Numbered from the stretch's first letter, positions 178 to 33,847 are shown. The stretch: 64,000 nt of DNA from Tricharina praecox (GCF_024521635.1 NW_026250403.1:2976001-3040000); one strand, 5' to 3'. Notes: a model not told the origin generated them from the sequence alone. Numbers and translations: made by a program.

Positions 178-3100
178 TCATAAACAAGCAAGGTCGTCTT
201 CAAACATATCCTCGATGTCATCAAACAAAAGGTCATTGAGGTCACCCACTTGATCACTACTGCTGCCCAGTCCCATCCGTGTAACATCCTCTTCGTCGTC
301 ATCATGCTCCATATCGTCGTCTTCTTCGTCGCTTGAAGATCCGAAGCCGCTGCTCAAGATGCCGCCCTCCCTTCCATTACCACCAGTCCCCGCAGTGTTT
401 CCGTTGGCGAGGTCGATGCTATCAAGTCCAGTTCCGAGAGTCAATGTGCCGACAGTCGAAGCATTGCTGGTGAATGTTTGAGACTGCACTGAACCCATCC
501 CGGTGATCCGGGGAATGTGCATGTCCGGCCGTACTCCTCCAAGGATAGCATTATCCCGTTCCCGGGTTGCCGCAAGCGTCTCCTCCACATACTCGATCCA
601 AATCGGATCCGACACTTTCTCCAACACCTTCGAACCGAGAACCTCCGGAGGATGTCGTTCGGCGAACTTGACTACCTCTTCCGCAACCAAGGTCAGGTGT
701 CCCATGTATCCGAGTCGCATCCTCCTCCCTGTCTCAAACTTATCGGAATACTTCTGTCCTTCGACTATGCGTTCGGTAATCCGTCCTGTGACGAACAAAT
801 CGATCGCCAAAGCACGGTTATATCCCCTGTCCATCGGGCCGTTGAAGACTTGCTGGACAACATCGTAAACAACGTTGTGGAGGAAGTTGTTCCACGGGAA
901 GCGGAAGAAGAATTCCTGGCGAAACGAGTCAGCATCCCATACCCATTAGACCCCAATGGAAGCAATCCCTACCAGAATCGTCGGAACGACCTTGTGCTCT
1001 ACAAACATCATCTTCAAATAGTCACCGACCACTGGATTCCCGTCCAGATCCGGTTCGACCATTGCCTGATATTCGGTGAAGCTTGAGCCGAGCGACCCTG
1101 TCGATCGGACACTGACATCACCCTCAGCTATGGTCGTATCAGGAGTGCTGTTCAGATCCATGAGATTTTCCTCCTCTTCGAGTTGCGGCGTCTCATCCTT
1201 ATTCTCGGTCGATGGGGGTGGTTGTTGCGCCTCCGAAGTCTGTGCCGTCACAGGCGCTGGAGTTTGTGGACTGAGCGGTAATGACTCTGCTGATTTTAGA
1301 TCTTCTACCAGTGACCTCCCGCTCTGCCGGAGGGATTCGTCGTCTTCTGCCGCAACCGGAGGCGAGGGTGCCTTAGGAACTTCCGTATCCTTAGGCGCCG
1401 CTTCACTGCTCTGCTGCGCAGGTACTGGATCTTCCTTCTCCTGGTAGGCGGGAGGCGCATCACTCATGTGTACATCGACTTGCGATTTTGTCTCCTGAGG
1501 TGCTGTGGTCGGCGCATCCGCATCTTTCTGGGGCGCCTGGGGCTCGCTTGGAGTCTTGTCCAGTGGAGGGATATCATCGGTCGGTATCGGGACCATAACG
1601 GCTTCGGTAGTGTCCTCAATAGTATCCTTCGGTTTCGACGGTGGAGACAGAGGCTCATCGACAAACAGATCCTCGTCATCGTCCCTCCGGCCTTCATCGT
1701 GGATGTCATGGATGTTCGCCAGATCTTCGCATTCCATGTCGGCGTCGGCGCGAACATCGTCCAGCATCCCAGAGATTATTACATCCTCGAATTCCTCTTC
1801 GTTGATACCGTCGTCCGACATCTCAACGCCACCGTTTTGAACCTGAAGAGGCGCTTTTTCCACAACCACGCCTTCGACACCGGCATGATGATCCACCAGC
1901 TCGTCCGTCGCAAGCATGTGTTGGAGCCGCGCCGCCTTCAGTCTCTCCCTCTCGCGGTCCCTCTCCCTGACATATCGTTCACCTCCTTTCTCATTCAACA
2001 AGCCCATGTTACTGCAATGCAAGAGTTCCGCCATGAGCTCGCACGTCTTGAACCTGTCGAAGCCAAGGGGCTCGATCGCACCGCCGAAGGCCACTTTGAG
2101 TTCCCGCTTGCTCTCGTTCTTACTGCCGTCCGCGTTCACCGTGTGTCCGTACGACATAATGAGTTTCATGAAATCCGGAACATGGCTCGCAAACAGTCGG
2201 AGTAGAGTGCCGAGATATATTGGATCTCTCGACGAAGGGACGCTGTCCACCCCGGTGCCGATATCGGGATCGTAGTCGGAGTTATTCTTCCGGATGACCT
2301 CAATGATTATTCCGACACCAACCGTCAGGGGGTTTCCGCCCTTGAGCATGTCGGAAATGAGCCCCGAGATGCACTCTTGCGATACCAATTGTCGGGTGAG
2401 ATCGTTCGGGCCGATGCAGGACTGTTCGTTCTGCGAGGCGTTGGCGGATATTGTGATGAGCGCCTTGATGAAGTCACCGCTAGCGGTCTGTGTCGACTGG
2501 CTGTGTTCGCTGGAGAGGAATGAGAGTAATAGAGGGATGAGGTTTTGCGAGTGTAGCCACTGTGAGAAGAATCTGAATCAGCTCTGTGGCTTCCAATGTC
2601 GGGGGTCACGGTGTGGACAAACATCAACTATACCCGCTCCACCCTCACACTTCTCCATGCTGATAATTTTGAGCAGCAGATCCATGATCATCGGGCAATC
2701 GACATGCTTCAAGATACGGGGTACTATTCCGTCGAGGCTTCTAACAAATGACATCATCTCCTCGGTCTTCTTGTCCAATAAAGTCTCGTTGACCTTTGTA
2801 AAATAACTAGCCTGCAAGGGGTCTAATGGCGGCGGGCGTTCCAGGAACGTCCAAAACATTCGGAGGTGGTCGATGTTTTGCATCAGCGCCTCCAGGAGCG
2901 ACCAGGCCTCACTCGACAGGACCTCGCAGGAAACATAAGCATATTTCAGCCTTGTCTTCTCCCGTTCAGCCTCAAGAGCGATACGGTCGCTCTCGTCCGA
3001 ATCCTCGTCATCCGAATCCCCACCATCCTGCTTCGGTGTCGGCTTCTGTCGCGGCGCAGGCTTGGGCGCGATCACGTATTCCAGCAGCCGCCGCAGTATC

Positions 3101-3258
3101 TTCTCGTCCCGCAGGAACTCTATAAGCTTCGTGTTGTGCTGCTTCAATTCTTGGATGAGATCCGATTCGTCCAGCAATTCCTCGAGCGTCACATCTGGCT
3201 TCTCCAAGATCGTGTCCAGCGTCGAGGTGTTCGCGTATCCGCCGAATCGCCAGAACAT
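178..3258 (-). CDS. SIT4/PP6 phosphatase-associated protein (SAPS family, Sap155/185/190-like); at least 3 exons; the 3' end may splice beyond the window start
   Basis: N-terminus MFWRFGGYANTSTLDTILEKPDVTLEELLDESDLIQELK; motifs LGFDRFKTCELMAELLHCSNM, FFFRFPWNNFLHNVVYDVVQQ and RLGYMGHLTLVAEEVVKF. GT-AG introns near 2625-2565 and 970-915. Confidence 0.92.
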
Positions 3259-4848
3259 GGCTGGCGGCTTCTTTGGTCGTCGAAAGTACAGGGTGGTAGG
3301 AGAGGGGTGGGGCGGGATGTCTGTGGCGGGGTGGTGGAGGTTGGTGGTCAGATGGGTTCGTTGGGCTAGCTAAGCAACCCTGGTGACGAAATTGCGGGTG
3401 TGGGATGAAGTTTACTGTGACACCGGGGACTCGCAGCTGTTAGCAATCATCATCGAAAGAGCCCAGCAACAAAGACGAAAAGAACAAGGCAAGCAGCTTC
3501 TCGTGAACCTGCCGAAGGCGCAGAAGCACAGCCGCAAACAGATATATACACTGATAGTTATCGCCTTCGCAAGTGAAAGCCAGTGACGATTGGTGGGGCA
3601 GTGCGTGCAGTCGCGGAGGAGGAGGGGCCGGGCAAGAGAAGCAAGCAGACAAGCAAGAACGGCTCTCTCTCGTTTAGGAGATCAAAATAGCCGATGACGA
3701 TGGCCGAACTCACAGGTATGGATTTGGAAGTTTGAAAGTTGTGATTCTTCCGCTTGAGTAGTCTTCGTCGTCTTCGTCGTGGTGGTGGTCGTCGTGAATC
3801 GTTGGAAGCTGTGTGCGTTGCGTGTGAAGTGTAGCAGTGTGTGTGGTGGGATGGAGCTCGCCGCCGGTTGTTGGTTTTGGTTGGTTCTTTGGCTGGGACG
3901 GTGGATCTTTCAAGGCGGGCGGGATTTGGGATTTGTATGGACGAATACCAGACCAGCCTGCCTTACATAGAGTACGAAACAACAGAGCTCCAACAGAGCA
4001 ACGGCGGTAAATAAGAAAGATGTGTGCGACTAGGACAGGCAGGAAGATGATGACTTTCTCTATCTACCCAAGCTTCGGGAACAGGATGACGATGATGGTG
4101 CTGACAATGAGAAAAGGCGGGGCGGAGAGAAGACGGTGCTGCCGGGCAAGGAGAGGGTTCTTCGCCGCAGCTGCGCACCGACGGCATCAGTGCCGTATCG
4201 CCAGAACCGGTAGTTGTACCACTACGGCATTTGTGAAGGTAATTTTCGCGGGATCCAGTTCTTCAGAAGCTTCATATACAAACGGCTAGATACTGGGACC
4301 ATTCGAAGCCAAAATATTACCCTTTTGCGATGGGTATCGGTTCCGTACCTGTTTGTCGCGTGCTCGCTCACTCATTTTCCAGGCGGCCATTCCTCACATA
4401 CAAGGTAAGTAGATAAGGCCCTCGATGTTAGCCGCGGTACAGTCAATACAACCCTGGCATGGCTGGCCGGGCTTCGCCAGTAAAATGGCAAGCATCGTAT
4501 ACAGGCCACAACAGCCACATGGCCGTCGTCGCTCGTGAACCCCACACGAAGCATGGCCTTTCTCGAGGTGCTCGTTGGCGGGCCATAGTTACCTGCAGTT
4601 GGACTTACTCTGCAGGTCACATCCGCTACCAATCGGATCGCCGTTTGTCTGGATGTGCTTGCAAGGGCTCGATCTCGAGGTGCTGGTGAGAATCAAAGAC
4701 GCATGATAGAGTGTGTAGAGCACAGTCGTGCTTTCACGTTATAGAGTATAGAATACAATGACACCTAAAGAATGAACTCCCTAAAGACAAACAAACGCTG
4801 ATACGATAACACCCATGGAAACCAGTCATATGTGTATTAGGAAGCAAG

Positions 4849-5825
4849 CTAGACGGCCTCCTTGATCTTGGAGGGAGGCTCATCGAGGAAGCTTGGGACC
4901 GCGTCAGCGTCTTCTAGGAAGCCTGGGAGCGAGGTAGAGCTCTCGGCTTCCCATCCACCGCCGAGTTCAACCTCTTCGCCGAGAGCCTCGAGTTCAGCAT
5001 CGAGCTCCGCCTCGTCGACCTCTGTGATATTATCCGTTTAGCTCTGTCGATCTGGGTATTACGTATGTACGCAGGTGGTCGACTCACCGTCAGGAATGTC
5101 GTAGGATCTCGATATCGACTCTTGAATATCGTTTCCGATATCCATCAAGTCGGCCATTTCATCCTGCATCTGTTCAACTGCAAGTCGGTTAGTCGTGCGT
5201 AACAGATATCCAGCAGGGGAGGTGGCATGAGCTTACTCTTGTCGATATTGACCTTGCCATACTGCTTCTTCAACTCCTTATTCGTCGTCTTCATCGCATC
5301 GACAGTGACCATAACGTCTGCCCTCCCGGACCGCCACCACATCAGCACAACCCACACTAAAGCTGCGCCCACGACCTCCCAGCCCAGACTCTTCCACGGC
5401 AGCAACAGCGGCGCCACCACCGCAATCTCCAGCACCGCCGAAAAAGTAGCAGTAGCAACAGTAGACCGACTCTTGAGATTATCCTGCATCATTCCCGCCT
5501 GCTGCATGTTCCAGCTCTGCTGCTCCAGCTGGTCCTTCTGCGTCTCGTACATTTTCCGCCGCTGGAGGACCTTCATCGCTTTCTGCCGCATCGCTTGCTT
5601 GCCCGGCCCGTCGCGCATCTTGCTGATTCGCTGCTGGAACGTCATGAGCTCCGCATTGACTTTCGCGAGTTGCACGTCGACCGATTCGATGCGCGTGTCG
5701 AGCTGTAAGTCAGGTGTTAGTATAGTAACTGCCAGGTGGCGGAAGTTGCGCGAGCTCACGTTGCTGATCGCTCCCGTGAGCGTCGGCTTCGGCGCCGTGT
5801 TCTTGGATCCAAAGAGGCGGTTCAT
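4849..5825 (-). CDS. VPS60: ESCRT-III Snf7-family protein Vps60/CHMP5; 5 exons
   Basis: MNRLFGSKNTAPKPTLTGAISN, KAMKVLQRRKMYETQKDQLEQQSWNM, NVMVTVDAMKTTNKELKKQYGKVNIDK and EVDEAELDAELEAL. Introns 5759-5703, 5470-5318 and two more downstream; TAG at 4851-4849. Confidence 0.93.
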
Positions 5826-6220
5826 CGGTGCGGTTGTATATGTGAAGGTGCAGTGGGAGCCAGCGACAGGTGTGGGGTTGATGGAGGTCAAGGGCCGCGT
5901 CGCTCTAAATATCATAGTGGCGGTGACACAATGGATGCACGGGCCAAGACGAGTGAGCCCATGTGATCACGCGAAGAGAGTCATCACAATTGTTGCCACA
6001 GGCAACAGATATGGAACCTCGAAACTGTATGCACCATTCATTTCATACCTACAACCCCCGCATATTCATCCAGCACAGCACCGAACCCAAAACCAAAAAA
6101 TAACATGCAGCCAAATCCCACGCTTGCAAGAAAGAAAGAAAGAAAAGAACCTAACATCGACAAAAACACCTCGAGCGAACGTGAACTTGTACAGTTGACA
6201 CCTATCCTTCTCCCCTCTAA

Positions 6221-9200
6221 CTACTTCTTAAACGCAACCTTCACATCATTAACTTTAAACTCACATTCCAATCCAGACTCCTTGTACGGTCCTACAAGCA
6301 ACAGCATGATGCGCTTGTGGACATTGATGAACTCGTCCTCGAGCCTGAGTAGGATCTTGTCGACGAGCTTCTGGCTCAGTGCTGACTCGTCGCCATCGCC
6401 AAAGTGCTTGTCAACACGCTTCTTGAGCTGCTCGATACCCTTGCGGATATCCTTGCTCTCGGCATGGTGCTCGAGGACTTTCTTGAAGGCGGCCTTGTTG
6501 TGCGCACTTCTACCCGCGATGTCTTCCGCTGACGTACCGGATGCTATGAGCGCTTCGACATTCTCGACAAAGTCCTACACGAGAGCAATTAGCGGGGCAC
6601 GGATTAACCGGACGCGGATGGTAATACCAAAAGCTTTGCCAGTGGCCGGCGAATAACGGCGCCAATGTACAAGCCCATGTGCTCACGATACTCCTCATCG
6701 GCTTTCTTACGGAAGCCCTCAAGGACCTCGTTGCCCTTAGTATCAACTTCCTCAAGGTAGTGATGCATGTTCTCGATCATCATGATGTGGTAGTTGAGCT
6801 GCTCCTTGTCCTCGGGGTCGACGTTCTGACTCGCCACTGCTGGAGACTCTTTGGCAATCGCTTGCAGCGATTCGAACATAGCTTTGTTGATCTTGATGTA
6901 CCCCTCATTGACCATTTCGCGGATACTGAGATCGTCGGACTCGACAATTGTCTTATTGTACGGGATCTGCTCCTCGATTCTAGCCGCAAAGCCCTATTCC
7001 ATAGCCAGTCAGCATTAGTAGGCGAATATTGTAATGGAGAAGGAGGGAAAGCTGCTTACCGGGAATACACGCATAAATTGGATGACACCCTTCCTCTTCT
7101 TGATCTTGACCTTCGTATCCTCAATAGCCTTAACCTGCTCGTCCAAGAATCGTGCAAACAGTCCCGCAAGACGATCATGGAGTGTCTGAAGCATCTTCGC
7201 AAGAAACTCCTGGTCGGTTTCGTCAACGGTCGCAATCTTTTGCTCGACGGCATACATGATGCCGACTCCCTGGGTGGCATCTCCCAGTGTGGCCCAATCG
7301 ACCATATTCTGGAGGTCCTGTAGTAGGAACGAAAAGAGCTCGCCCATGTACTCGTAGATGACCTTTGCCTTGAGCTTATCCGGCTCGACAGTGCGGAGTC
7401 CTCCCAGGTCGTTGAGCCGGCGTGTCTCGGGCGGGCCTCTGGTCACGAACTCGACGAAGTCCGAGGAGTTCCGAGAAGACAAGTGGAAGAATTCGACCAC
7501 AAAATTCTGCTCCTTGAACACGAGCTGATATATCTCTCCAAATGCCCCTGCAAACGCCGCATTGGAGGCGATGATACCGGGTGAAGGCCTCTCATTGCTA
7601 CTGAAACTTCCTCCACCAGTTCGAATGCGAGCAATCGATTTCTTGACCGTGAGCTTCCTAGCTCCCAAACTGGCAGTCACACTCTCTTCCTTCTCCGGTG
7701 CGTTGAAGATGAGGTCTTGCTCCTCCTGGGTCGGTTTCTTGGAGATCTTCTTCCAAGCACCGATTTGCTCTCGGATTTCCTCCATCATCAACGACTTCGC
7801 CATCTTTCCGTACAGCTTCCGCAACTCAACATATTCGTCGCCGTCGACGTCTCGCGCGAACGTAATCAGCCCTGCGAATTTCCACATGGCCTGGTACGCC
7901 TTGTCGTGCCCGATCATCCTGGGGTGCAGCCCCGAGTTTACCTGACCGATCTGGGCATCCCTCTTGATATCCGTGAGCTCCGATTGGAATTTGTTATTGA
8001 GGAACTGTCGTAGGCGTGCAAGGAATGCGCGGCAGCTGTTGCGGTACTCTTCCTTCCTTTCCTGCAAGGCCCGCATGCTGCCCACACCTTCGTCGCTGAA
8101 GGAGCCCCGTCGGCCAATGCGAGGTGAGGATGGGTCGTGCGTACTAGTGGGTTCTATCGTCCGCATGGCTTTGTAAAGGGATACCAATGTCTGCTCGATC
8201 TGTTCCAAGCCTCTCGGGGCATCCATCGATCCCTTCCGCAGGATTTCCATCTGTGCGGGCGATATCGAGATGGTGTCTAGTAGCGTTTGTAGTTCCTTCT
8301 GCAACGTCTTCTGATTTGCAGTCTGCAGTTGAAGACCCTGAGATTGGTTCTCGATATGCGTGATGTCATCATTGAGACTCTGCTCGGCCATATTAGCATC
8401 CAGCCACAAGATACACCTGGGAAAAGGGGACGGCGTACCGTCAGCTCAACGGCATAGAGCGTCAGCAGCCCATCCATCTCTTCACACTCCTTAATCGCCT
8501 GATCAAGCAGAACCGACAACTGGTCGACCCTATCATCGCCATCAACGTTGATGATGACATTGTTCGACTCCACTCGCGACAGCTCCTTCCTTACGTCCGC
8601 CTTCAGCTGATCGATCTTCCCCTTCGCATCCCAGTTGAATTCCTGCAGGAGCTCCTCAATGTCTACGCTCATCCCGCTCTTGTCGATGCCGTGGAGGTAT
8701 GACGACTTATCAGACCGGCGCTTCCGGCTTCGTGAGCGCGCCCGAATCGGTCCCTTGGGCGCCATCAGTGAGCCCGAGTCCGGTACTGATGGTTTCTCCG
8801 CGGGCACTTCTATTGTTTGTTCGCCTGCAGGCGGCGATATAGTCGGTGTGGCCAGAGGAAATGTTGGCTTTCTGATCATCAAGGCGGGTTCCGTGATGAC
8901 GGGGACGCCCCTGAGTGCGGAAGCCAAGGAAGCTTGTTGCGACAGCGAAGACTGACTGTTTTCCCTCGAGGGAGGTGGCCTACCCCGTATGTCATTCTTA
9001 GAAGAGGGCTCTCTTGGAACTAATGGTGGTATTTCTGCGGGCGCCGGGGATGGTTGTTGTTCCCTTGATGGCCGAGACCGAGAACGCTGCTGTGGTTCAT
9101 CTCCCGATGGCCGCCTAGAACCACTCCTACTTCTGCTCCTACTTCCGTTCGACTGGTCCCCTGAAGGGTTGCGTTCCTGTGGGTACTTGATCTGTGGCAT

Positions 9201-10677
9201 GACTGGGGGTGCTTCTGGTGACATGCTTAACGGCTCTTTCGTGAGTTGGCTCGTGTAAGTAGTAGGCGTGGTAGGTGTTTTTGGGCGGGCCTTAGGTGTT
9301 CCAAGCTGGCTGCTCAAGCCATAGGCATTGGCAGCCAGTCGGAAGTGGGACGCGGCGTCTTTATTGGCCTTCGGTTTTGGCATTGAATGGCTCTCTTGGG
9401 GTGGGGGTGTCGGTGAGGGACCCGGCATTTTGTTATTCTGGTAGGGAGGATACTGTTCCATTGCTTCTCGTCGTGATTCTTGCGACTGTTGGCTGTTGAT
9501 GGATGCCGTCCTGTACCTCTCCTGCGAGGGAGCCCGCCTCATCGATCGATCGTCCTCGGACGGCGGTGGACCCCGTGAGCTTGAAGGAGTCCTACTCTGT
9601 CCAGACCTCGTTGAAGACCCATCTGATGGCCGCCTTCCATTCAAAGCTTGCGGCACCACTTGTGGCACTGGAGGAGGGGTATGTCTTGAAGGTGCAGTAT
9701 CCACGGGAGTCCTACGACCAGAGAGTCCACTCGAGGATCCCGGCGGCCGCATTGTACTCGGAGAGGGCGGCGGTTTCTCGCCCGGTACTCTTTGTCCAGC
9801 ATATGGCTGTATGCGCGACGGTTTATTCAGGGATTCCATCGACGGGGCATTTCGCGGGGTGGCTTGTAACGACGGCGGCAGCGACGACGGCGCTGATGCC
9901 AACAGCGAACCTCCAGTCGAGGCAACGGGGCTCCTCATTTCCTCCTGCGGCAGCAATTCCGCACCACCGGGGCCCATCAACGCATCCAGCTCTGCCTTCC
10001 TGGGGCCAAGTAGCTCTGGCACCTTTCCACCCGTGTATTTCTTGTAGATCTTGACCAGTGAGTAGATGAAAAAGTCCTTCTCCTTAGCCGTGTTCGCCTG
10101 CCAGTAATACGCCTTCAGGATCGTGACCGTGAACCCCTTCTCATTGGGCGCAGGATACGTCGTGATGCACTGGAGGTCATCGAGATTCCACGTCTTTCCG
10201 ATCGAGAACGAGCCATTGGGGTTTTCGCGGCCCTTATGCATTCGCACCCGGCCGGACTTACGGACGGCGACCATGATGACTCGGGCCTTGCCGTTTCCCA
10301 TCGGCGCGCCGGGCGGCGGCGGCTCAGACGACGAGCCATCTTCGAGGACTCGGCAATGGGTGATGTAATCCTCGAGGGCTTCATACTCGCAGCATTCGGG
10401 TCAGCGACAGGAAGCTACAGAAATTTGTGCGAGTGGGTGGGGGGGCTTTTCGTTTTATTTTTGAATATGTATGTGGGACAGGGACAGGACAGCTCAGGGA
10501 GGTAGCTCCCAGCAGCAGGCAGGCATTATGAGGTTACGTACTGGAGCCATCGGCGTCCTGTCTGCTGAAGCAGGACTGTACGATTCTTCGCTTCTCGTCC
10601 TCAAACTGCTGGGCTTTCGTGACAGCAGCTTGCTGGCCGGGGGCGGCAGGCGTTGCGGGGGTTCTCGCGTAGTCCAT
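6221..10677 (-). CDS. SEC3: Exocyst subunit Sec3; 5 exons
   Basis: N-terminal PH-like region (EKRRIVQSCFS, YITHCRVLED, VRKSGRVRMHKGRENPNGSFSIGKTWNLDDL), a long Pro/Ser linker, ECEEMDGLLTLYAVEL, IENQSQGLQLQTANQKTL, KAIEDTKVKIKKRKGVI and EDKEQLNYHIMMIENMHHY. Intron 1 is 10541-10379. Confidence 0.93.
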
Positions 10678-11014: not shown

Positions 11015-11020
11015 CTCATC
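11015..11020. promoter_or_regulatory. Possible PAC core (GATGAG on the minus strand) in the divergent SEC3/DBP4 promoter
   Basis: CTCATC about 275 nt upstream of a ribosome-biogenesis helicase. A 6-mer can easily occur by chance. Confidence 0.3.
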
Positions 11021-11293
11021 AGTGCGAACATACAAAGAGCTGTTGTCCTCGCAACAGCGAAGAAATTAAGCCTCTAGCACGGACCATGAAGGGCATTATT
11101 TTGCAATGCCGAACTACATCATACGTGGACCTCGTTTCCACTCTTCGCGGTGTATGCATAGACAACCCTATTGAGTGATACTCCATGCTCCGGTACTTAC
11201 CGGAATGGTTAGCGTTGGTAGCTACATTTTCTGCACTCGTCTTCCATCCCACCAGCGACGAACGAAGGCGGTCTTCACGAGAAATCCACCACG

Positions 11294-13804
11294 ATGCCAT
11301 CCGCCTCCGTCGCCTCCGTCGCCTCCGTCGCCGTCGGTGCGCCCACGCGGCCCATCCGTGTCCCCATCCCCGAAAAGAAAGGCCAGCAGGGTCCCGCGAC
11401 CGCCGAATCCCGCCGCCTGAGCAAAAGCCTAAAGCGCAAACGAGACGAAAACGAGCTCGCCGCACTCTCCACCGCGGTCGAGAACTTCGACTCGAAGACC
11501 GCCACGCTCTTTGCCGAGTTACCATTGACCCGCCAGTCTGCCGTCGCGCTCGATAAGTCACACTTCAAGGCGCTCACCGATATCCAGCGGAAGGCAATCC
11601 CGCTCGCGCTGAAGGGCAAAGATGTGCTCGGCGCCGCGAAGACCGGGTCCGGGAAGACGTTGGCTTTTTTGATCCCCGTGCTGGAGAACTTGTATCGCAA
11701 GCAATGGAACCACCTCGATGGCGTCGGTGCGCTGATTATCTCTCCCACGCGCGAGCTGGCAACTCAGATCTTTGAGGTGCTGCGGAAAGTCGGGCGGGAG
11801 CACACATTCTCGGCGGGCCTGGTGATCGGAGGGAAGAAGCTGAAGGACGAGCAGGAGGCGCTACATCGCATGAACATCGTTGTGTGCACACCTGGCCGTA
11901 TGCTGCAGCATATGGACCAGACTGTTGGGCTCAACTTTGAGAACTTGCAGATGCTGGTGCTTGACGAGGCCGACAGGATTCTGGATATGGGGTTCCGGAA
12001 GACGCTGGATGCGATTATCACCAATCTCCCCCAGGAACGACAAACGCTGCTGTTTTCGGCGACGCAGACGAAGAGTGTGTCCGATCTTGCGCGGCTGAGT
12101 CTGAAGGAGCCCGAGTACGTTGCCGTGCACGAGGCCGCCGCATCGGCCACGCCCGTAACGCTGGAGCAATTCTACATGGTTGTTCCGCTGCACGAAAAGC
12201 TGGACACACTCTTCGCCTTCCTGCGGAACCACCTGACCGCAAAGATCATTGTCTTCATGAGCTCGTGCAAGCAGGTCCGCTTTGTCTACGAAACCTTCCG
12301 ACAGCTACACATCGGTATCCCGCTGCTGCACCTCCACGGAAAACAAAAGCAAACTGCACGCACAGACATCACGGCCAGATTCCTCGCCTCGCCGAACAGC
12401 TGTCTCTTCGCGACGGACGTGGTAGCCCGCGGCCTCGATTTCCCCGGCGTCGACTGGGTGATCCAAATTGACGCACCAGAAGATGCCGATACCTACATCC
12501 ACCGCGTGGGTCGTACCGCGCGCTACGAAAAAACCGGGCGGGCACTGCTCTTCCTCTGTCCCAGCGAGGAGACAGGCGTAATCAAGCGTCTGGAGGCGAA
12601 GAAAGTGCCGATCGTCCGGGTCAACGCCAAGCAGTCCAAGAAGAAAGAGATAAAGCCGCAGATGCAAAGCCTGTGCTTCAAAGACCCGGAGCTGAAATAC
12701 CTCGGGCAGAAAGCCTTCGTTAGCTACGTGCGCAGCATCTCGATCCAGAAGGACCGCGAAACCTTCCAGCTGGCGGAATACCCGCTCGAAGAGTTCGCCA
12801 GCAGTCTTGGGCTCCCCGGGCAGCCGCGGATCAAGGGCATGAAAACGGCCGATACCGAACGGATCAAGGAACGCAAGAACCTGCCCCGTGCGCTCCGGAA
12901 ACTCGAGGAGGAGCAGGCCGCCGCCACTGCAGCAGCAGACAGCGACGATGACAGCGACGCCGACTTGGCTAAGAAGAAGGACGAGAAGAAGGACGAGAAG
13001 AAGGTCCGCACTAAACACGACAAGATGGTCGAGCGGCAGAACCAGAACGTGCTCGCTGAGCACTACCGCAGCCTCGTACACGATGCGGACGCTTCGGATG
13101 ACGATGCGGACTTCTTGCAGGTGAAGCGGACGGGTTACTCCGATTCCGAAGGAGAGGAGGAAGACGACAAGGAGGATGAGGAGGCGGATGCGGATGCGGA
13201 CTCTACCGGCGGGGCGGTCGACCTAATAAAGAAGGTAGTCCTCGGCCCCGACGGCAAGGAGCTAATCATCGACAGCAAGCGTCGCGAGAAGCTGGTGACG
13301 TCGAAGAAGAAGATTGCGGCGCTCAAGTCGAAGGGAGTAAAACTGCGCTTCGACGACGAGGGCAATGCGCGGTCCGTGTACGAGCTGCAGGATGAGGAGA
13401 AGTTCCTTGCGTCTGGTGCGCCTGAGGACCAGAGGAAGAGCTTTTTGCAGACGGAGGGGAAGAAGGTCAAGATCGCTGATGTCGAGGATCGCGATCTGGC
13501 AAAGAGGAAGAAGAAGGAGAAGAAGGAGAAGCGGAAGCGCCTGGAGAGAGAGGCGATGGGCGAGGAGATGGCGGCGGAACATAATGAGGAGGAGGAGGGC
13601 ATCCAACTATATGGAAAGCTGGAGTTGCCGGATTGGAATGCTACTAGTGATGATGATGAAGAAGGTGGGGGTGTTGAGCTACAGGAGAAGTCGGAGAGGC
13701 CGAGTAAGAAGAGGAAGAAGGAGAAGAGGAGAGTCATTGAGGCGGAGGATGAGCCCGAGACACTGGAGGACTTGGAAGCTCTGGCGGCTGGTTTGTTGGG
13801 TTGA
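11294..13804 (+). CDS. DBP4: DEAD-box RNA helicase Dbp4/DDX10 (18S rRNA processing), intronless, 836 aa
   Basis: [47 protein letters not shown]-terminal [20 protein letters not shown] and [10 protein letters not shown] typical of Dbp4. Confidence 0.95.
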
Positions 13805-17007: not shown

Positions 17008-17039
<32 letters not shown>

Positions 17040-21795: not shown

Positions 21796-24044
21796 CCGCC
21801 CGGCCCAGATCTGATCCACCCTGGCTATGGCGTGTATGTATGGCCGGATGTTTTGCAGCACCGAATAACGCCAGCGATAGTTCCTCTAGTTATTGTCCAG
21901 CACCAGTCCGAGCGGCACCAGTGGTCTAGAGAGAGGAATGATGTCATGACCACCCACGGGCGTGCCTGGAGAAGACAAAGAACATCTACCGCCGGCGTTA
22001 ACGCTCGAGGGCTCCTAGCTTGAAGGGAAAAGCCCGTCGAGGGCTGGGCCAGCTGGGCCCGCGAGTGCGTGCATGTGTTCAGGTGCGCTGAGACGGGATC
22101 CTCACGGGAAGGGAAGGGCTTGAATGCGGGGCGTCCGCGTGCCGTGGGTTCTATAGAGTTTCGTGAGCTCCACATGCTCTAGAAGAGGAAGAGGAGGAAT
22201 CTGGAGGTTATATCTGACTGAGTTTGTGAAAAGCTTGTTCGTGGAGCTGGAGGTCGATGTCTTCTTCTCCTTAAAGGCTGGGTCCGAACTTTAATTTAAT
22301 GTATGGCGGCTCCTCCGCGGGGTGAAGGGCGGTATAGGTGGGATTATTCGTGTCGGAAGCTGCAGCATATCGGATTTTGTGTGGTGGGTGGGCGGACAGC
22401 GGATAGGTCCGGCCGTGAAGAAATGGCGAACAGGACCTGAGTACCCAATGTATGCATCCAGTGATACCCGGAATCCCTATCCTTTATGCGCAAGGCAGAG
22501 TCTGATCGATAGATGAACATGACGCCTGGCCGCGAATACCGTCCGCTTCTGGCCGGCCGATGTGGAGAGCCTTCTTGCAGCCAGCATCTCCCCCACTCCC
22601 TGCAGAATAGGGAAGACATCGACGAATGTCGATGGTGATGCTACCAAGTGTTGATATGGAGGGAAGCGTGTCGTGCGTCTCATGATATTTCTTTTCTTTT
22701 CTTCTTTTCTTTGATCTCCACCTTCCGTCCTCCATCCTTATATCCCTATGCCTATTATGTGGAGAGCCGGTGCCGGTAGCTCTAGACTGCGGATCCCCTC
22801 ACTTTGCGTCTTCTCCTCATTCTTCACGGGGCGCCGGTTTTGTGTCGCTATTTCGTGGCGAGCCATCCATGGCGATCCACATTCGCCTTCTACTCTAGAT
22901 CTTCTCTTGGCCGCTTTTCAATCTATTTCCCTCCCCATTGGTTGGTTGATTGGGGAATCAATTCTGGATTTTTTCACGGATTTTGCACGGCTGCTTCTTT
23001 GCTCACCGTGTTCAGCGTAATCGCAGAGATTATCTTCATGTTTATCGTCATCATCTTCTCCTGCGCTTGTTCGCCGTGGTTCTCGCTGTTATAAATCACA
23101 TTACTTGGTTAATACCCTACACGTCTCTGATATCTCCTCCACTCATCACTTTAACTCTACACGAGAAGCGCCACCGAGCAGCGACACGCTCTCCGAAAGC
23201 AGCGGAGCAACTCCCGCTTGTAGATAAAAGAGAGAGAAATAGAGAGCGGAAGGAAGAAGTCAAGGATTCCCTCTCGCATTAACCAACGCCGAGAGTGAGA
23301 GAAGTGAGGAAGAGTGACGGAGAAGTGAGTTGGACGCCTCCCACGGAATATACACCCCCCATCCCCCCATCCCCAAAATACCCCCAACCCCATCGCTCCC
23401 AAATCCACCAACACCCCTTCTTCCCCTCCCCGAGTCGTCGGCCATTACACATCGATAACGACTTCCCTCCTTTTCTACAACAACCACGACGCCAACTCCA
23501 CACACGGGACTCGGTATTCTCGACCTCCTCTTCCCTACACCTCTCCCTCCCACCTCCCTTCCCTCTTCCTCGACCCTCCCCCACCATCACGTCCCTTGCT
23601 TCATCACCTTCGGTTCACCCCCCTTTCGACCTTATTTCACTTCGCGTCCTCCGGGGAAGCACCTATCAAAGGAGTTTCCTATATTCGGTTCCCGTACCGA
23701 CGCCCCTCGACAACTCCTTCGATCTTCCTCCCAAGGCAACCCAAATAACACGCTGTGCCATCGTGCCCTCCGTTTCGAATCAAGGGCAACATCAAAACAC
23801 GTCCCTGTCGCCACGGACGAGTCTTTAATCGTTTATCTGTTCGACGCCCTTAATCAACACCACACTTCGTCCTCAACACCACTCCTCGTCCGGAACACCT
23901 TCCCGTCTCGGATCTACGCCTTTCGGTCACGTCAGAGAAACCATCGAGAAAGAATAAAATCATTCTCTCCAGTTCTTAGACTACAGATCAACCTCTATCA
24001 GTTCCCCCGCTGAAAGGACGGTGCTAACTAGGACGCTCCACTCT

Positions 24045-27000: not shown

Positions 27001-27439
27001 GCTTCCAGCACGATGAAACAAAGGTCATCTCGGGTTCAGATAAGACGCTCAAGATGTGGAATATCAAGACTGGAGAGTTCATCAGGGACCTGTTGACGGA
27101 CCTGACAGGCGTTTGGCAAGTTAAGTTCAACGAGAGACGATGCGTTGCTGCTGTACAGAGAGACCAGGTTACTTATATTGAGGTTTGTTTGCCCTCCACC
27201 TTTGCCGTGTTTCTAGTGGGCTCATTGCTGACATGATTTCGTTGTAGGTTCTGGATTTTGGCGCTGCGAGAGACGGCGTACCCGAAGATCAACGGGGACG
27301 AAGAATCGTGGTGGATCTCCATGGCAAAGAGATTCCGGAGGGCAGTGATCCTATGGATGAAGGTGTGTACCCTATAAACCAGAGAATTTTGGAGCGCGGC
27401 TGATAATTATGAGATTCAGCCGATGACGATGGCTTTTAA
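24045..27439 (+). CDS. CDC4: SCF F-box/WD40 protein Cdc4 (Fbw7-like); 4 coding exons
   Basis: Dimerisation region (YVMYQLLRRC), F-box DFLTLLPSELALDIIKYLD, WD40 repeats HVVTCLQFD, GHEGGVWALQY and SGSTDRTVRVW. Introns 24447-24512, 27183-27247 and 27363-27419; ends ADDDGF*. Confidence 0.92.
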
Positions 27440-28683
27440 TCCTGCGCGAGTTCGCCGTCATCGGTGACGGTGATGGCTTACTGGGATGGCTACCACCAGC
27501 CCAACACGACGTTATTATTCCCGTTTTAACGACACCCGTTTATCCCTTTCATTGTTCCTCCTATTCGTTTATATTACCCATGGCGTTGGTTGCGTTGCGT
27601 TTCTTTGCATTCACTTCTTTTTTTCCTTTTTGATTTTACAGTGTCCCGGTTTTGGTGCCCCAATTGCTTTATCTTCTTCACATCTATATACCGGACGAAG
27701 CACTTTGGAAATGGTACTGGTGTGTTTTTACTTTTCTGCTTGTTTTTTTTATTACGACTGGGGGGTACAAGTCGATCGGATCATACCCCGATACACACAC
27801 AAAATTGGGTGAATAGTGAAGGTTCGACTCGGTTGAAGGCGAACGGTTTTCTATGCTACTACTATCCGTCCCATATGAATGAGTATTGACTGTTGTTTTT
27901 TTTTTATTACTTGATTTGGTTCGGTCGGTGGATCGTGGGGGTGAAAGAAAGAGGAGGGGAGAATGCGGAGTTCTTTTTTTTCTGTTGTTTTACGTTTTTT
28001 TTTCGCGTATTGGTTTTCATTCTGTTTCCCTTTTTAATGATAAGAGGGGACATGAAAGGTAGGTGGGATGCGGGGGATGGGGGGTATGTACATATGGTAC
28101 GGGACGGGATGGGATGGGAAGTGTTTGTAGCAAAAACTTATATACGATACGATGATATACCCACATGGCACAGGGCGAGAAGTGGGGATTTTGAGCCCGG
28201 AGCTTTGATTGGGCTTTGATTGGTCAGTGTGTGTGGTGTGAGGTCAGACAGCCGCGCGCTCGAATATACATTTGCCGCCGACGCCGCCACTACCACCACC
28301 ACCGCGGCATGGCAACGACTCAACGACTGGAGGAGATGTTAAGGTCCCACAACGTTCAAGGTCATCACAGTTTAGAGGCACCGCTGAATTTACTGCGTCT
28401 GTCCTCGCGTCTAGCTAGCCATACATCCGCCCGCGCTACAAAGTTAACGGCACGGCACAGTAAGTCGCCATAGGTACTGTCTGGCGGTTGTGGTAACTAC
28501 AAGTGGCATTGGAATAGGAAAGGGAGGTTAGCCGCGGAAGTGGCGTAGGGCTCTACGTGAGGGTAAAGAGTATTGTGTACTGTTTACCACATCACTTCAT
28601 TTGTTAACAGCGTCCAGTGAGAGACCTCTGACGGGTACTGGTAATTGGTGAGACTGATTTTATTGACTAGAAAACAACCAGAA

Positions 28684-29078
28684 AGCAAAGCTGCAATGGC
28701 CAACATAGCCAGCACCAAAAAAAGGTACATGAAGAAGCCAGATAGACTCCACACCCACAAGAGACCGACCGACTAGGTAGACGAACATAAAAGCAGCAAC
28801 AGAGAACATTTCAACTTCAAAGCGACCGCATCGGATCTAGTCTTGAATCCCAAGCCTGCAATGTACATTTTTTTTCCTCCAAAAGCAGCCTTTCCGCAAG
28901 TACCACAATATGTCCAACAACATAGTAACAAGCAAGCAGACAGTCGAACGAACAATCAGATGCCCATCAAAAACAGAAACGCTAGGTAGTAGCTATGCCA
29001 GTGTAACTGATAGCAAAGCTGCAATGGCTAAAATAGCCAGCACTAAACAAAGTTACATGAAGAAGCCAGGTAGACACC
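28684..29078. repeat. Imperfect ~67-bp direct repeat (28684-28750 and 29012-29078)
   Basis: agcaaagctgcaatggccaacatagccagcaccaaaaaaaggtacatgaagaagccag versus agcaaagctgcaatggctaaaatagccagcactaaacaaagttacatgaagaagccag. Confidence 0.85.
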
Positions 29079-29300
29079 CACAATAGCCGGAAGTGCACAG
29101 CAGTCACATCTAACCTTAGCATGGGATTCGTCAAGGGATCGACATGCTAGAATCAGAGGGTAAAAAACTTCCAGCCAAAGTATTGAGAACAAATATTCAT
29201 CAGAACCAAGCAAAACCACGAATGGCACTTCTTCAACTTCAAATTCATCCACAAGCAAGTTCACAACTCCTTCCCGCAGGATCTCTCTGTGCCCATGTTG

Positions 29301-30703
29301 CTATCCCGGTACGTCCACGCCCACCTGTGCCGCGGTAACCCCGTTCCTGAGCCTGACAATAGGGCGTTGTCGCTCCTGTTCGGAGATGGCCCTGCTGCGA
29401 ACTGCAACGGATGTCGGAATTCCCCCGGGTTGCGACCTGGAATCTGGCGCGACTGTCCTCGACGGTTGCTGAAGAGTGGGGGTGACGTGGTATGCCAATC
29501 TCTCCGCCCAATGCTCGTCGTGAGTAGCGGCTGGTCGGAACGCATGCGGCTGCTGAATTGTCTGAGACACCTGTGGTCTGCGCGGCGAAACTTGTTGATT
29601 CATTTGCACGGGGACTTCTGATACGAGCCTTTGCGGAGGCGAGTCTGTCATCTTCTGGCGATCCTGTGGTGGAATGGAGCGAAGGAACTGGGGATCTTGT
29701 TGCAGCGGCACATAAGGCTGCTGGATTTGCTGCCGCTGGATTTGCAGCTGTTCGGTCTGCCGTGGTTCCGTCTGTTGCTGCCGACGCTGCCCCCGAAGCT
29801 GCCCCCTAAGCTGCTTGCGAAGCTGCTCGCGAAGCTGCTCCCGAGGCTGCCCTCGAGGTTGCCCCCGAGGCTGTTCCCGAGGCTGCCCCCGAGGCTGCTC
29901 CCGGACCGATTGGACGTGCTGTTGAACCCCCATCTGTACCGGCCGAATGGGCGAAGCCAACATCCGTTGTTGCGGTAACCCTTTCTGTTGTTGCGGTAAC
30001 ACTTTCCGTTGGGTCACTGCTGGCACATGCGGAGGAGGATGAGTCTGCGGAATATTGACCAAGCGGCGTTGGCCCTCCTCATCGTCAGGCCGAAGCCTTC
30101 TGATAACGTCCGGAGGAGGCAACCAACTTCCATGGAGAATACCCATCTCGAGCTGATGATCGACCCATTCCCTAGGGTGTAGGGCCTGTGGGTTGAGGGT
30201 TCTCTGTGGTGTGGGGTAGTGTCGTCCGGGGTTGTATCTTGCGCTATCGGGGAGCTCGATAGGCGGTGGGGATCTTTGTGAGCGGAAGAGGTGGCGGGGG
30301 AAGTACCCCGGAACGTGTGGGTCGCAGGGGTTGGCAGGAGGATTGAACTTATGTGAAGTCGTATTATCAGGAAGTGGATCGGAATAAGAGAGAGGCAGGG
30401 GGAACCAACGAAGGATGGAGGGCCGGAACCGGAAAGCGGTGCAGGTAAGCGATCAGGTACATTTAAAGCAGGTGGGCCCGAAAACGGCTGACGTTGATGC
30501 GAGGATTGTGGCGTCGTCAATCCACTACTTCCAGCTGGAGCGGGAGCAGGAGCAGGGACAGCAATCATCGACTCAATGGTGTCTCTGCCATTGACACCGG
30601 CATCATGGGTGGTGATGATGGGGAACCCTGCCGACGTCTGGATTTCTGCCAGGTTATTCCAGCTCTCAACAGAGAAGGGTGAAAGGTGCTGCACTCTAGA
30701 CAT
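29301..30703 (-). CDS. Hypothetical Pro/Gln/Arg-rich low-complexity protein (~446 aa, 2 exons)
   Basis: ORF 30703-30410 joins ORF 30347-29301 in frame via a GTTGGT...CTGAT...AAG intron (30409-30348). It has a CT/CA-rich upstream leader and internal REQP/RGQP repeats. No family recognised. Confidence 0.55.
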
Positions 30704-32240
30704 TTTCTGGATGATAACGATCCTCGTGGTGATGGTTGTGTTTTGTGATCTATGAGCGAAGAGAGCAGTGTGGAGAAGAAGGAACTGTGGGAGGACGTGT
30801 CTTTAAAATGAGGAAGATACGCGGAGAGGGAGTGTGAGTGTGTGTGCGGTGTGAGTGAGAGGGTGAGTGAGGTGTGAGTGAGGGTGGAGGAGAGGTGAGG
30901 TAGCTTCGGACAGAAACTAACTACTAACTGCGCACCCGCTGGTTCATGTATGCTCAGAGCAACTCTAAGTGACGGACTCCCTTTGAGACAACCCGACAGC
31001 GGAACAACAAGCAAGGAGACTACGCAAGCTACACGCTCAGTTGTATCGATCTTTGGGTGGTGTTTACATTACTGAGAAGTATCCGAATTACTTAGAACAG
31101 CGAGAGGAGCTGTTCATCGCATTCCAATTCGACATGTTTCGGGCGAAAAAGTATAGCCTGGCCATGCACCGTTTGGCATCTCTTATGAACAGAGAGACCA
31201 GGCAGAACTTGGGGGAGACGGGGATTCGGATACACAGTACTGATGGAACCCGAAACGGCGGAATACCGAATCACGAACTAAAAAAACTTCTTGGTTTGAA
31301 CGCGAGCAGCTGGACCTCAAGACAAGCATAAAACGAGGATGTCAATCCGCCACGTTTACCATCAAATTAGCTTTGCTAAGCTCCAGTCACTGTCCCCGCA
31401 ACATACCCCTAGTTCCGCTGCCCCCCGCAGTCTTTCCTCCTGTGACTTGCCCTGGCACTATACTCCAACCCGCGCTCGAACAGGAGACTGGTGCACAATC
31501 ACGGTACGCATTGCCATCATTAGTAATCACTCGTCGATGCGTTTCCAAGCCGAAGAGTCGGCACTCGGAGGGGGTTATACATGGCAAGAAAGTCAAAGTC
31601 GACTTACAAAGTTGCGAAACGTAATTTCGACATCGTAGCTGGGGAAACCTTATATCAACATACACTAATCCCTGTACATTGCAGCGAAGCTTCCCCGAGT
31701 TTCTATCGATGCCGTGTCGTCTCCGATCGACGTGAACTCGCCACTCCATAGGTTGGGTCGACATCTTGCGTCCCGAGAAGTTGGTTCTACACAGTCCATC
31801 CGGTCGCCAGCGGCGTTCAGCCCGGATAGTCGCCGGTACCATTCGGGCATCAGGACGGCGCCTCAATCCCGAATAAAGCTTACGTTACATACAGTTACGG
31901 GCACTAGTTGAAGGCTGAAGCGTATCGACACATAGGTGAGCCGAGCCCCAAACGACAGTATGTCATGGCCCTGCTGCAGGCTATACTAGGTTATCTGTGT
32001 GTGAGCTCGAGCTTATCAGCACGTAGCTGGAAAGCCCGAAAGCCTATGGGGCATTGCTTCTGCGCACATCGCAAGCTCTCTGCTTGAGTAATCGTTGCAC
32101 GAGCCTTTTGAATGCAGTCAATGAATAAACAACAAAAATAAAGCACGAGCCTTTTGAAGCTCGAGTTTGAGACCCTTCTCAGGTACACCTCTTGGAAACC
32201 TCCAAAGAGAACTTCATCGTTACATTCAGAGAGAGAGAAA

Positions 32241-33847
32241 CTACAAAATCGCACCGAAACTAGATTACAACACGAGCCAGCAGTTAGTACTGTCGACCCA
32301 GAAAGAGAAAACAGAACAAAACTAAACACAAAATAAGATGGAGCGGCAGCGGTTTCGTCAACTCATATACAACCTGGCCACATATGCAGCGGCGGCTGCG
32401 ATGGCAGCCCCGACAAGTACAGGACCCATTATTTCAAGTGTCATATCCTGCCAAGAGGCTCCCTTTATAACGACGCTGGTCTTCTTTGCTTTATGTTTCT
32501 TGGGTGCAGACGACGATGAAACAACACGACTGGGGAAGGAACCTGCGTACCCAAAAGTAGCCTTGATGCTGCGGACGTAATAGTCCTCAAAGTTCCTCTT
32601 GCTGACCTCATCCTGGCCGACAGGAACGCCAGTCCAGGTGACTCTCAGGTTGGTCGAGTCGCTGCCCTGATCGAAGACCAGGTTCATAGTTGAGTAGTGG
32701 TCTAGAAAACATCAGCACTGATACCAGTTACGACGGGATCCCACTCACCCTTTGGCCAGGAGCCCAGTCTCCAGTCCTGAATGATCTTCTTGTTCTGTTC
32801 TAGTGTCTTGAAAGTACCCACAACGTTTCCGCCAAATAGGTTGAACTTTCCACCCTCCTTGGGCTCAAACTCCTGTGGGGGTGTCCGGGTGAAAGCCGTC
32901 ACACGCTGCGGGTCGACAAACGTCTGGTACAGCTGCTCCGCCGAAGTGTTGAACTCGTACGTCTCCGAAACTGTAACGGTGTTAAGGACCCTTCCCTTGG
33001 AGTGCGCAGTCTCTGCCGATTTCGACGGCTTTGCGGCGGCCTGAGCGGAAGAGGAGGTGGTGGTAGCAGTGGTGGCAGTAGTAGCAGCTTTCTTAGCCGG
33101 ATCGGTAGCAGGAACGTGCTGAATATCCTTGGCATGGTGCTCGATCAAGTCTGGAGAAAGACGGGCAAAGGCCTTGCGGAGCTGAGGGGTAATCTGGGTG
33201 CGGACGAGATCGCGAATCACCTGCTTGTCCTTGGTATCCGCGTAGTTGCTGATATCGAACTATGGGCTTGGAGTGAGCTGCTGGAAGACTTACTCGAACG
33301 CGTGCGGGTAGGATGAACATACGACGTACTCGCCTTCCTCGGTGTCGTGAGCAACCTCGGGAATAACGATGGTGCCATTGGCCTCCACGCCATCAGCGTT
33401 CTTGCCTATTCAATGTCAACAAAGCGTATTGTTGGGTGTTGCGCCGACTAGGAGATACCAGAGTATTCGAGCTTCACCACGAGGTCAAAGATAGTAACGA
33501 CCTTGCCCTTCCGCTGGTTGACATCACAGTCGCCCTCAATGCTCAGGACCTTGGTGATCTTGGCCGAGACGCCGTTCTCTTCAGCGGAGATGACAGTGAG
33601 ATTCTCTGAGAAGTAATCCTTTGTCCACTCGCGGGCGTCCTTGTTCACCCAGTGCCCTGACGTTGAAACAATTAGCTTTCGACGCATCCACCATGGCGAC
33701 CATCAATACACGTGGTAACTGCGGGGAAGACGCGTACAGTTGCTGTAGCCGAAAGAAAATGACAGACACGTCAGAAAAGTTCACATAACAAATATCGAAA
33801 CACACGTATTCTCGTATGGTGACTTACTTGGGGTTGTGGAGAACCAT
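32241..33847 (-). CDS. AHA1: Hsp90 co-chaperone Aha1; 6 exons including a 5-nt micro-exon; the spliced form ends TFGFGAIL*
   Basis: MVLHNPNNWHWVNKD, SIEGDCDVNQRKGKVVTIFDL, TIVIPEVAHD, FNLFGGNVVG, IIQDWRLGSWP and DYYVRSIKATFG. Confidence 0.93.

Follow-up and report, generated by a model that had tools for sequence, protein, structure and literature searches.

Intron-encoded membrane anchors predicted for Aha1 and Vps60, and an alternative end of a SAPS gene, in Tricharina praecox and other fungi

The DNA considered here is a 64,000-nucleotide stretch of a Tricharina praecox chromosome (GCF_024521635.1 NW_026250403.1:2976001-3040000; the window, with positions counted from its first letter), which has a G+C content of 49-58% and exons whose translations equal annotated T. 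praecox proteins exactly. Pfam matches identify three genes on its minus strand, at the places given in a first-pass annotation made from the sequence: SAPS (SIT4-phosphatase-associated protein), a Snf7-family gene (Vps60/CHMP5) and Aha1 (activator of Hsp90 ATPase). That annotation had described one unusually long intron in each of Vps60 and Aha1, open in the upstream frame and with a hydrophobic reading. Both are present at those sites, and its account of their layout, with two hydrophobic stretches in the internal intron of Vps60 and a single C-terminal segment in the terminal intron of Aha1, is accurate; its end coordinate, 32550, is the first base of the Aha1 terminal intron. We consider it probable that the three genes carry three independent "coding introns", each with an evolutionarily maintained second protein form, rather than parts of one system. 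Comparison of sequences among species supports the view that the intron-encoded anchors of Aha1 and Vps60 are conserved rather than accidental. The coordinates of all features are collected in Table 1.

The terminal intron of Aha1 lies five codons before the stop codon and is 3.4 to 6 times as long as the other five introns of the gene (47-85 nt). With this intron spliced, the gene encodes a protein of 328 residues that ends in ...TFG|FGAIL*; with it retained, the translation has 386 residues and is identical, residue for residue, to the annotated protein P0228. Reading through adds 63 residues after TFG, consisting of a basic linker rich in serine and lysine followed by ...LEIMGPVLVGAAIAAAAAYVARLYMS*. 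This tail has one C-terminal, helix-like hydrophobic segment, with a best Kyte-Doolittle (KD) mean of 2.0, that ends 5 residues before the stop (KD means were taken over 19 residues for Aha1 and over 13 residues for Vps60). The retained form has a single hydrophobic segment, no more than about 30 residues from the C-terminus, and none elsewhere, as is characteristic of tail-anchored proteins. The remainder of P0228 has the soluble fold of Aha1_N and AHSA1, in which no signal peptide was seen on inspection by eye. Overall G+C content does not discriminate, being 0.51 in the open reading frame (ORF) of the tail, 0.44 in the remainder of the intron and 0.55 in the exons. At the other end of the gene, a micro-exon of 5 nt, CAACT (33738-33742, minus strand), lies between introns 33827-33743 and 33737-33657 and is required for the start MVLHNPNNWHW, as in P0228. 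The annotated Aha1 proteins of Wilcoxina (P0229) and Pyronema (P0232) start with MVLHNPKVNKDAR, which suggests that these models skip the micro-exon.

To survey Aha1 in other fungi, we ran HMMER against every protein with a query made up of exon 6 and the tail, and the 107 proteins recovered at E <= 0.001 were sorted by the residues that follow the ...TFG position. Short ends were found in 46, mostly FGAVL, FGTIL or YGAIL, and the five-residue FGAIL type is the canonical end in most of them; 40 were Aha1-like proteins with a tail of at least 19 residues, 2 had shorter tails, 8 were cut off and 11 were not Aha1. A 19-residue window with a KD mean of at least 1.5 occurs in 29 of the 40 long tails, with two more at 1.47 and 1.49, and it ends at most 13 residues from the C-terminus in 25 of those 29. 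The usual tail has a start rich in serine and proline, a stretch rich in lysine and arginine, often a tryptophan, then the helix and a few further residues. Carriers include the chytrid Blyttiomyces, Jimgerdemannia (Mucoromycota), Racocetra and Geosiphon (Glomeromycotina), Rhodosporidiobolus, Sporobolomyces and a cluster to which a protein of Puccinia sorghi belongs (Pucciniomycotina), and Xylographa (Lecanoromycetes). The retained form is the annotated one in T. praecox (P0228, which matches the full query at 100% identity), Wilcoxina (P0229, 382 residues) and Trichophaea (P0387, 386 residues). Aligned to the tail in the window, those of Wilcoxina, Trichophaea and three environmental relatives are 42-53% identical (exon 6 gives 42 of 50 residues), and in five of six comparisons the alignment score was reached by none of 500 composition-preserving shuffles. 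In two Aha1 homologues, P0140 and P0172, the terminal intron is open throughout and rejoins the frame, giving the ends ...RRRFGTIL or ...RLGRFGTIL, which confirms the layout of intron plus micro-exon in other lineages.

The spliced form is likewise represented among relatives. The Aha1 of Pyronema (P0232) ends in FGAIL, as does P0230, which is 90% identical to the Aha1 of the window and is encoded on a contig of 1081 bp; its cluster has four further members of 324 residues on contigs of 1120-1396 bp, the size of complementary DNA (cDNA). Both ends were found within a 90%-identity cluster of 12 rust-fungus proteins, one of which is a Puccinia sorghi entry. The longer form, of 394 residues, is found in four members, which end in ...KQIGL|ATAS...RHARRR...LGLILALAVAIWKGPTGDPWRT and seven of 322 residues end in ...KQIGL|GTIL; upstream the two groups are 95-100% identical, and they lie on contigs of 1.05-2.6 kb. 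The 394-residue ORFs nearly fill contigs of 1.3-2.6 kb, as expected of mRNA with a retained intron, and the GTIL contigs must be cDNA because an ORF caller cannot splice. Since the GTIL form is unreadable from unspliced genomic DNA, both rust forms appear to exist as transcripts. It is likely that a tail-anchored form of Aha1 is made in many fungi.

The spliced model of Vps60 equals the annotated protein P0007 (213 residues) residue for residue, its best named matches are Vps60/CHMP5, and its matches in PDB are Snf7, Vps60 and CHMP5. Intron 2, here called the hairpin intron, is free of stops in the upstream frame, rejoins the frame of the next exon and reads SRSTVATATFSAVLEIAVVAPLLLPWKSLGWEVVGAALVWVVLMWWRSGRAD. 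Two hydrophobic stretches lie on either side of PWKSLGWE and are followed by RSGRAD; their KD means are 2.51 and 2.45, and they are short, at about 14-17 residues. The intron has a G+C content of 63%, compared to 0.47-0.54 in its neighbours, and only 9% A. The insertion point, K99|N100, aligns to N98|L99 of Snf7 (8wb6_A). In an AlphaFold2 model of the retained Vps60 of Geopyxis, with a mean predicted local distance difference test score (pLDDT) of 62, helix alpha2 (55-98, pLDDT about 90) ends exactly at the insert; the model is compatible with a helical hairpin where the helix breaks but is not evidence for one.

Assembled RNA contigs of runs including X1, X2, X3 and X5 were compared with window positions 100-6300, which hold Vps60 and SAPS and not Aha1. 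X1 and X2 behave as RNA, in that all introns within this range are joined. The soil metatranscriptome X3 gave no match within 100-6300, and a second one, X5, gave two short pieces (1421-1607 and 4779-4950) that are uninformative on introns. Four joints occur in the Vps60 contigs from X1 and X2 (765 and 744 nt), namely 5021>5088, 5177>5237, 5317>5471 and 5702>5760, all with GT..AG ends on the strand of the gene. The joint 5317>5471, seen in both runs, shows that the 153-nt segment is a true intron, absent from the assembled transcript; its retention in T. praecox would be the less common outcome, and the sequence comparisons below are what suggest it.

Among the best 120 Vps60 homologues, 109 join the flanking exons directly at DNLK|N (103 by pattern and 6 by eye), and 11 carry a read-through of 49-56 residues at this site. 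Those with the read-through are from Wilcoxina, Geopyxis, Maublancomyces, Tuber brumale and other relatives, and Tuber indicum and T. aestivum are further carriers among the cluster members. Other Pezizomycetes, namely Pyronema, Morchella, Tuber melanosporum, Peziza and Terfezia, are annotated with the spliced form. All 13 distinct Pezizomycete peptides have two hydrophobic 13-residue windows (KD 1.5-3.1) separated by a polar loop of 4-12 residues, and most end in a basic patch, with a net charge of 0 to +4 over the last ten residues. The lengths seen for the hairpin intron are 144, 147, 153 and 165 nt, and indels are in frame. The Tuber-type peptides (T. brumale, T. indicum, T. aestivum and the Tuber-like metagenome locus L002, 1806-1965; proteins P0008, P0390 and P0391) are all exactly 50 residues long, and substitutions among the four are scattered, with no indel. 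We also scanned unannotated metagenome DNA at this site, comparing 80 of 165 confirmed loci, and 77 of the 80 have no intron there. Because the site is continuous exon in these 77, the segment appears to be a Pezizomycete peculiarity. Of the three remaining loci, two are Pezizomycete-like: L001, which is 89% identical to the window and has a 147-nt in-frame open intron, and L002, which has an open in-frame intron of the same length whose other two frames contain stops. In the third, L039, the intron is AT-rich, 96 nt long and riddled with stops.

The comparison of the window with L001 suggests that the hairpin intron has evolved as coding sequence. It is 84.4% identical (124/147) with a single 6-nt gap, compared to 62, 71 and 74% for the other introns of Vps60 and 86-94% for the exons. 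In the upstream frame, 13 of the 23 substitutions are synonymous where 6.7 are expected (P=0.0024; permutation test in which each substitution was reassigned at random among sites with an identical base, 20,000 trials), and the same test gave P=0.53 and 0.99 in the other two frames. No stop is present in the upstream frame, although 59% of the permutation trials create one. Nei-Gojobori omega is 0.21 in the upstream frame and 0.95 and 2.0 in the others, compared to 0.03-0.08 in exons 2 and 3. Going by conservation, we rate the odds that the hairpin form is translated as about even.

SAPS differs from the other two genes. Its coding exons in the window form an open translation of 963 codons, and the contigs of X1 and X2 follow it in blocks 3414-2623, 2559-972 and 914-250 (contig-alignment coordinates). 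These contigs leave the genome at 250, just before the GTGGGT donor; the letters that follow occur nowhere in the window and would continue the protein as FSSYISQEIS..., so that SAPS would be spliced to an exon beyond the start of the window. Reading through the donor instead gives the acidic tail VGDLNDLLFDDIEDMFEDDLACL*, which is the annotated C-terminus of nine Pezizomycete SAPS proteins (Sphaerosporella, Trichophaea, Geopyxis, two of Pyronema, Rhizina, Morchella, Tuber magnatum and Choiromyces), and the Dothideomycete SAPS proteins examined end in a related motif, QVGE[LI]SF[ED]D..M[ED]YR*. The SAPS protein of T. praecox was not among the 120 matches listed. The first-pass annotation had proposed that retention adds this acidic tail by the logic seen in Vps60 and Aha1, but the relation is the reverse: because the tail is the conserved annotated end, it is splicing that swaps it out. 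A 153-nt contig of X2 (record 6, 107-259) falls within the SAPS intron apart from an overlap of only 10 letters with the exon, when bridging of exon and intron was counted from an overlap of 31 letters; it is only a hint of unspliced SAPS RNA. Upstream of the coding region, the 5' untranslated region of SAPS has a 299-nt intron (3415-3713, minus strand) that is joined in X1 and X2, and a 359-nt contig of X1 (record 2, 3385-3743) covers it unspliced.

Table 1. Features of the Aha1, Vps60 and SAPS genes in the window
Feature	Position	Strand	Basis or remark
Aha1 gene, 7 exons	32241..33847	-	Pfam AHSA1 and Aha1_N match ORFs
Aha1 exons	33847-33828, 33742-33738, 33656-33459, 33405-33323, 33259-32749, 32701-32551, 32259-32241	-	model translation
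Aha1 terminal intron, 291 nt, phase 2, GTACGC...TACTAAC...TCTAG	32260..32550	-	sequence and gene model
Coding-capable part of Aha1 terminal intron	32358..32550	-	open in upstream frame, TGA at 32360-32358
Last Aha1 exon, 19 nt, completing a Gly codon, then FGAIL and stop	32241..32259	-	gene model
Vps60/CHMP5 (Snf7 family) gene, 5 exons	4849..5825	-	Pfam Snf7 PF03357; spliced translation equals P0007
Vps60 exons	5825-5760, 5702-5471, 5317-5237, 5177-5088, 5021-4849	-	four joints in X1 and X2 RNA contigs
Vps60 intron 2 (hairpin intron), 153 nt, phase 1, GTCGGT...GCTGAT...GGGCAG	5318..5470	-	gene model and RNA joints
SAPS coding exons in the window, ATG at 3258	3258-2623, 2559-973, 915-250	-	Pfam SAPS, RNA joints
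SAPS alternative end, 5' splice site GTGGGT at 249	178..249	-	read-through gives VGDLNDLLFDDIEDMFEDDLACL*, stop 180-178

Two neighbouring genes were recognized by Pfam, namely a homologue of the exocyst subunit Sec3 at 6221-10400 on the minus strand, which is broken up into several ORF blocks, and a DEAD-box/SPB4-like helicase at 11222-13801 on the plus strand.

Taken at face value, these readings would describe three separate choices of protein end or insert. Aha1 with its last intron spliced would be the ordinary soluble co-chaperone with the FGAIL end, and with the intron retained it would be a predicted tail-anchored protein in which a basic linker precedes a single C-terminal transmembrane helix. 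Membrane insertion of such a protein would be post-translational and would leave both Aha1 domains in the cytosol, which would place an activator of the Hsp90 ATPase on the surface of an organelle; hydropathy and the short C-terminal flank of the tail do not tell which organelle. The retained mRNA should escape nonsense-mediated decay because the last intron supplies its own stop, with no exon junction downstream. The alternative end would be old, reaching from chytrids to Dikarya. For Vps60, the Pezizomycete-specific phase-1 intron of 144-165 nt appears to be exitron-like and normally spliced. Its retention would insert about 50 residues where helix alpha2 of the model ends, with two short hydrophobic helices, a polar turn between them and a basic patch after them, and as a monotopic hairpin the insert would pin an ESCRT-III subunit in the bilayer. 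In SAPS, a 5' splice site at the first codon of the acidic tail would exchange this tail for the exon outside the window. A common switch or regulator of the three genes is not indicated; a single co-regulated system was considered and rejected, as only their common window links them. In its fullest form, which we put forward tentatively and hold to be somewhat short of an even chance, the proposal is that since before the split of chytrids and Dikarya each Aha1 gene has yielded two proteins, one soluble and one tail-anchored that activates Hsp90 on an organelle membrane, with the choice regulated, for example, by stress or development, and that Vps60 of Pezizomycetes has separately acquired an exitron able to convert a soluble ESCRT-III subunit into a monotopic integral membrane protein.

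The simplest objection is that these are ordinary introns, open by luck and hydrophobic because they are rich in T and G, from which no such protein is made. We generated 20,000 dinucleotide-preserving shuffles of each of the two introns. Shuffled Vps60 intron 2 was open in 15.7% of cases, and 0.95% of cases combined an open frame with two hydrophobic stretches; for the shuffled Aha1 terminal intron, an ORF of at least 64 codons arose in 7.3% and an end resembling a tail anchor in 1.9%. At rates of about 1% and 2%, the thousands of introns of a genome would include such cases, and the pattern in this single genome is not beyond chance, so that support rests on conservation in other species. 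The first-pass annotation had called for a test of conservation across species, and such conservation is borne out, across fungal phyla for the reading of Aha1 and across Pezizomycetes for that of Vps60. Most other introns had been described there as short junk, and this holds for most of the 10 checked: the other five of Aha1 reach a stop within 1-15 codons, the two of SAPS (63 and 57 nt) after 14 and 8 codons and intron 4 of Vps60 after 9 codons, while intron 3 of Vps60 shifts the frame. It does not hold for intron 1 of Vps60 (5703-5759, minus strand; 57 nt), which is in frame and open and reads VSSRNFRHLAVTILTPDLQ, a sequence that is not hydrophobic. This intron is 62% identical to that of L001 with 6 gap columns; clearly unconstrained, it is an internal example of an intron open by chance and speaks for that explanation, as do the RNA contigs that join across the hairpin intron and the low third-position G+C of the Aha1 tail. 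Luck would not account, however, for matching architecture at the same site in distant lineages (29 of 40 long Aha1 tails, from a chytrid to Ascomycota), for a synonymous excess confined to one frame of the Vps60 intron with its indels in frame, or for both Aha1 ends on cDNA-sized contigs of the rust cluster, and we regard it as quite unlikely.

Selection could also have kept the frames open for another reason, as a limit on the damage done by truncated, dominant-negative fragments of Aha1 or ESCRT-III when splicing fails, with a peptide that has no function in the membrane. ESCRT-III proteins truncated at the C-terminus are potent dominant negatives, the Vps60 intron is long and G+C-rich with an unusual GTCGGT donor that may be error-prone, and only joined contigs were seen. 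Avoidance of stops leaves unexplained the layout of two stretches, polar turn and basic end in 13 of 13 peptides, as well as the omega of 0.21, and it is inapplicable to Aha1, whose tail has its own stop after the transmembrane helix; this explanation seems unlikely for the set. Conversely, the segments might be constitutive coding sequence and the spliced forms artefacts, which would concern mainly Aha1 in T. praecox, where the annotation includes the tail, as do those of Wilcoxina and Trichophaea. For Vps60 this is refuted by the RNA joints. In Aha1 a perfect TACTAAC...TAG acceptor precedes an exon that gives the canonical FGAIL* end, the close relative P0230 has this end on a 1081-bp contig, and the rust cluster has both ends, which makes constitutive coding very unlikely.

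Several observations weigh against conserved second forms and temper our preference for them. Third-position G+C is 0.48 in the tail ORF of Aha1 compared to 0.66 in exon 5, a codon bias that is not exon-like. Sequence that is rich in G and T and poor in A yields a hydrophobic translation in part anyway, because A-poor DNA rarely holds stops and T/G-rich codons are hydrophobic. The Aha1 query contained the tail, so tail-bearing matches were favoured, although the 50 residues of exon 6 sufficed despite this bias to recover the 46 short-ended proteins. The Vps60 homologues are likewise a biased set, in that an insert that is not open would never appear in a protein taken from annotation or ORF calling. 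No contig of X1 or X2 covers 5318-5470, both Vps60 contigs join across the intron, and bin depth over it is that from the joined contig alone; this does not show that retention is absent, because contigs drop rare variants. The two helices that AlphaFold2 places within the Geopyxis insert (104-116 and 119-146) have a pLDDT of only 44-59. Finally, the 3' portion of about 45 nt of the Vps60 intron (5318-5362, GCTGAT...GGGCAG) holds only 1 of the 23 substitutions relative to L001. Its branch site read as protein is the VLMWW/LLIR motif, which overlaps the second hydrophobic stretch. This portion is constrained as RNA, so that part of the peptide conservation is conservation of splice signals.

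To our knowledge, Aha1 has been studied as a purely cytosolic regulator of Hsp90, and a membrane-tethered form across the kingdom, if real, would mean that activation of Hsp90 is spatially organized in fungi. Members of ESCRT-III are thought to cycle between cytosol and membrane, so a subunit inserted in the membrane would be unusual for the family. For annotation, the consequence would be that, where two forms are real, fungal gene models settle more or less arbitrarily on either. The T. praecox annotation has the retained Aha1 (P0228) and the spliced Vps60 (P0007), that of Geopyxis the retained Vps60 and that of Pyronema the spliced Aha1; that annotation by single isoforms hides the other form had been anticipated, and here it does so in both directions. 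Conservation of intron reading frames across species would reveal cases of this kind that are invisible in a single genome.

Searches of the open-access literature, supplements excluded, gave no title or abstract that bears on a membrane-bound or alternatively spliced fungal Aha1 or of a Vps60 isoform, and the passages of one preprint (10.1101/2021.11.08.467853) returned by a search by term mention neither Aha1 nor Vps60. Three kinds of system invite comparison, apart from the closest one discussed last. In cryptic peroxisomal targeting in fungi, the analogy drawn in the first-pass annotation, alternative splicing or read-through adds a three-residue peroxisomal targeting signal (PTS1) and gives dual localisation. 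Aha1 resembles it in that RNA processing supplies an alternative C-terminal end to a housekeeping protein, hidden by annotation, and differs in the size of the addition, a linker of about 40 residues plus a membrane helix instead of three residues. Exitrons, which are exon-like introns inside coding exons, have been described in plants and human, and they are usually ancestral coding sequence that has become spliceable. Intron 2 of Vps60 resembles an exitron in lying within an otherwise single exon, in its stop-free length divisible by 3, its higher G+C, its non-consensus donor and its coding-type substitutions, but it is a lineage-specific addition rather than ancestral coding sequence. No report of a fungal exitron was found in the open-access literature among the matches listed. 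A functional analogue of the would-be tail-anchored Aha1 is mammalian FKBP8/FKBP38, an Hsp90 co-chaperone anchored in the membrane on the surface of the endoplasmic reticulum or mitochondria (PMC13470449, PMC5344419), although it belongs to an unrelated protein family and the excerpts of these sources do not report it as one of two forms made by intron retention.

The closest precedent is PTC7 of Saccharomyces cerevisiae, in which, according to excerpts of one study, a retained intron encodes a predicted transmembrane helix and the protein is sent to the nuclear envelope, an event conserved in the Saccharomycetaceae (PMC3597508, citing Juneau et al. 2009). The first-pass annotation had supposed that the addition of a transmembrane segment by intron retention might be new in fungi, and PTC7 shows that it is not. 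Aha1 and Vps60 share with PTC7 an intron open in the upstream frame and conservation among related species, and the hydrophobic segments that their introns encode, as judged by KD windows, are candidate transmembrane helices. As in PTC7, the segment is a genuine spliced intron in both, in Vps60 by the RNA joints and in Aha1 by the splice signals, the FGAIL* exon and the contigs of spliced relatives. For PTC7, as described in those excerpts, the unspliced mRNA is translated and re-targets an otherwise soluble or mitochondrial protein, whereas translation and localisation of the Aha1 and Vps60 forms are predictions from sequence. The helix of PTC7 also lies near the N-terminus and is confined to the Saccharomycetaceae, in contrast to the C-terminal tail anchor of Aha1, found across phyla, and the internal two-helix hairpin of Vps60. 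The principle that a retained intron can add a transmembrane segment is already known, and Aha1 and Vps60 appear to be added cases of it.

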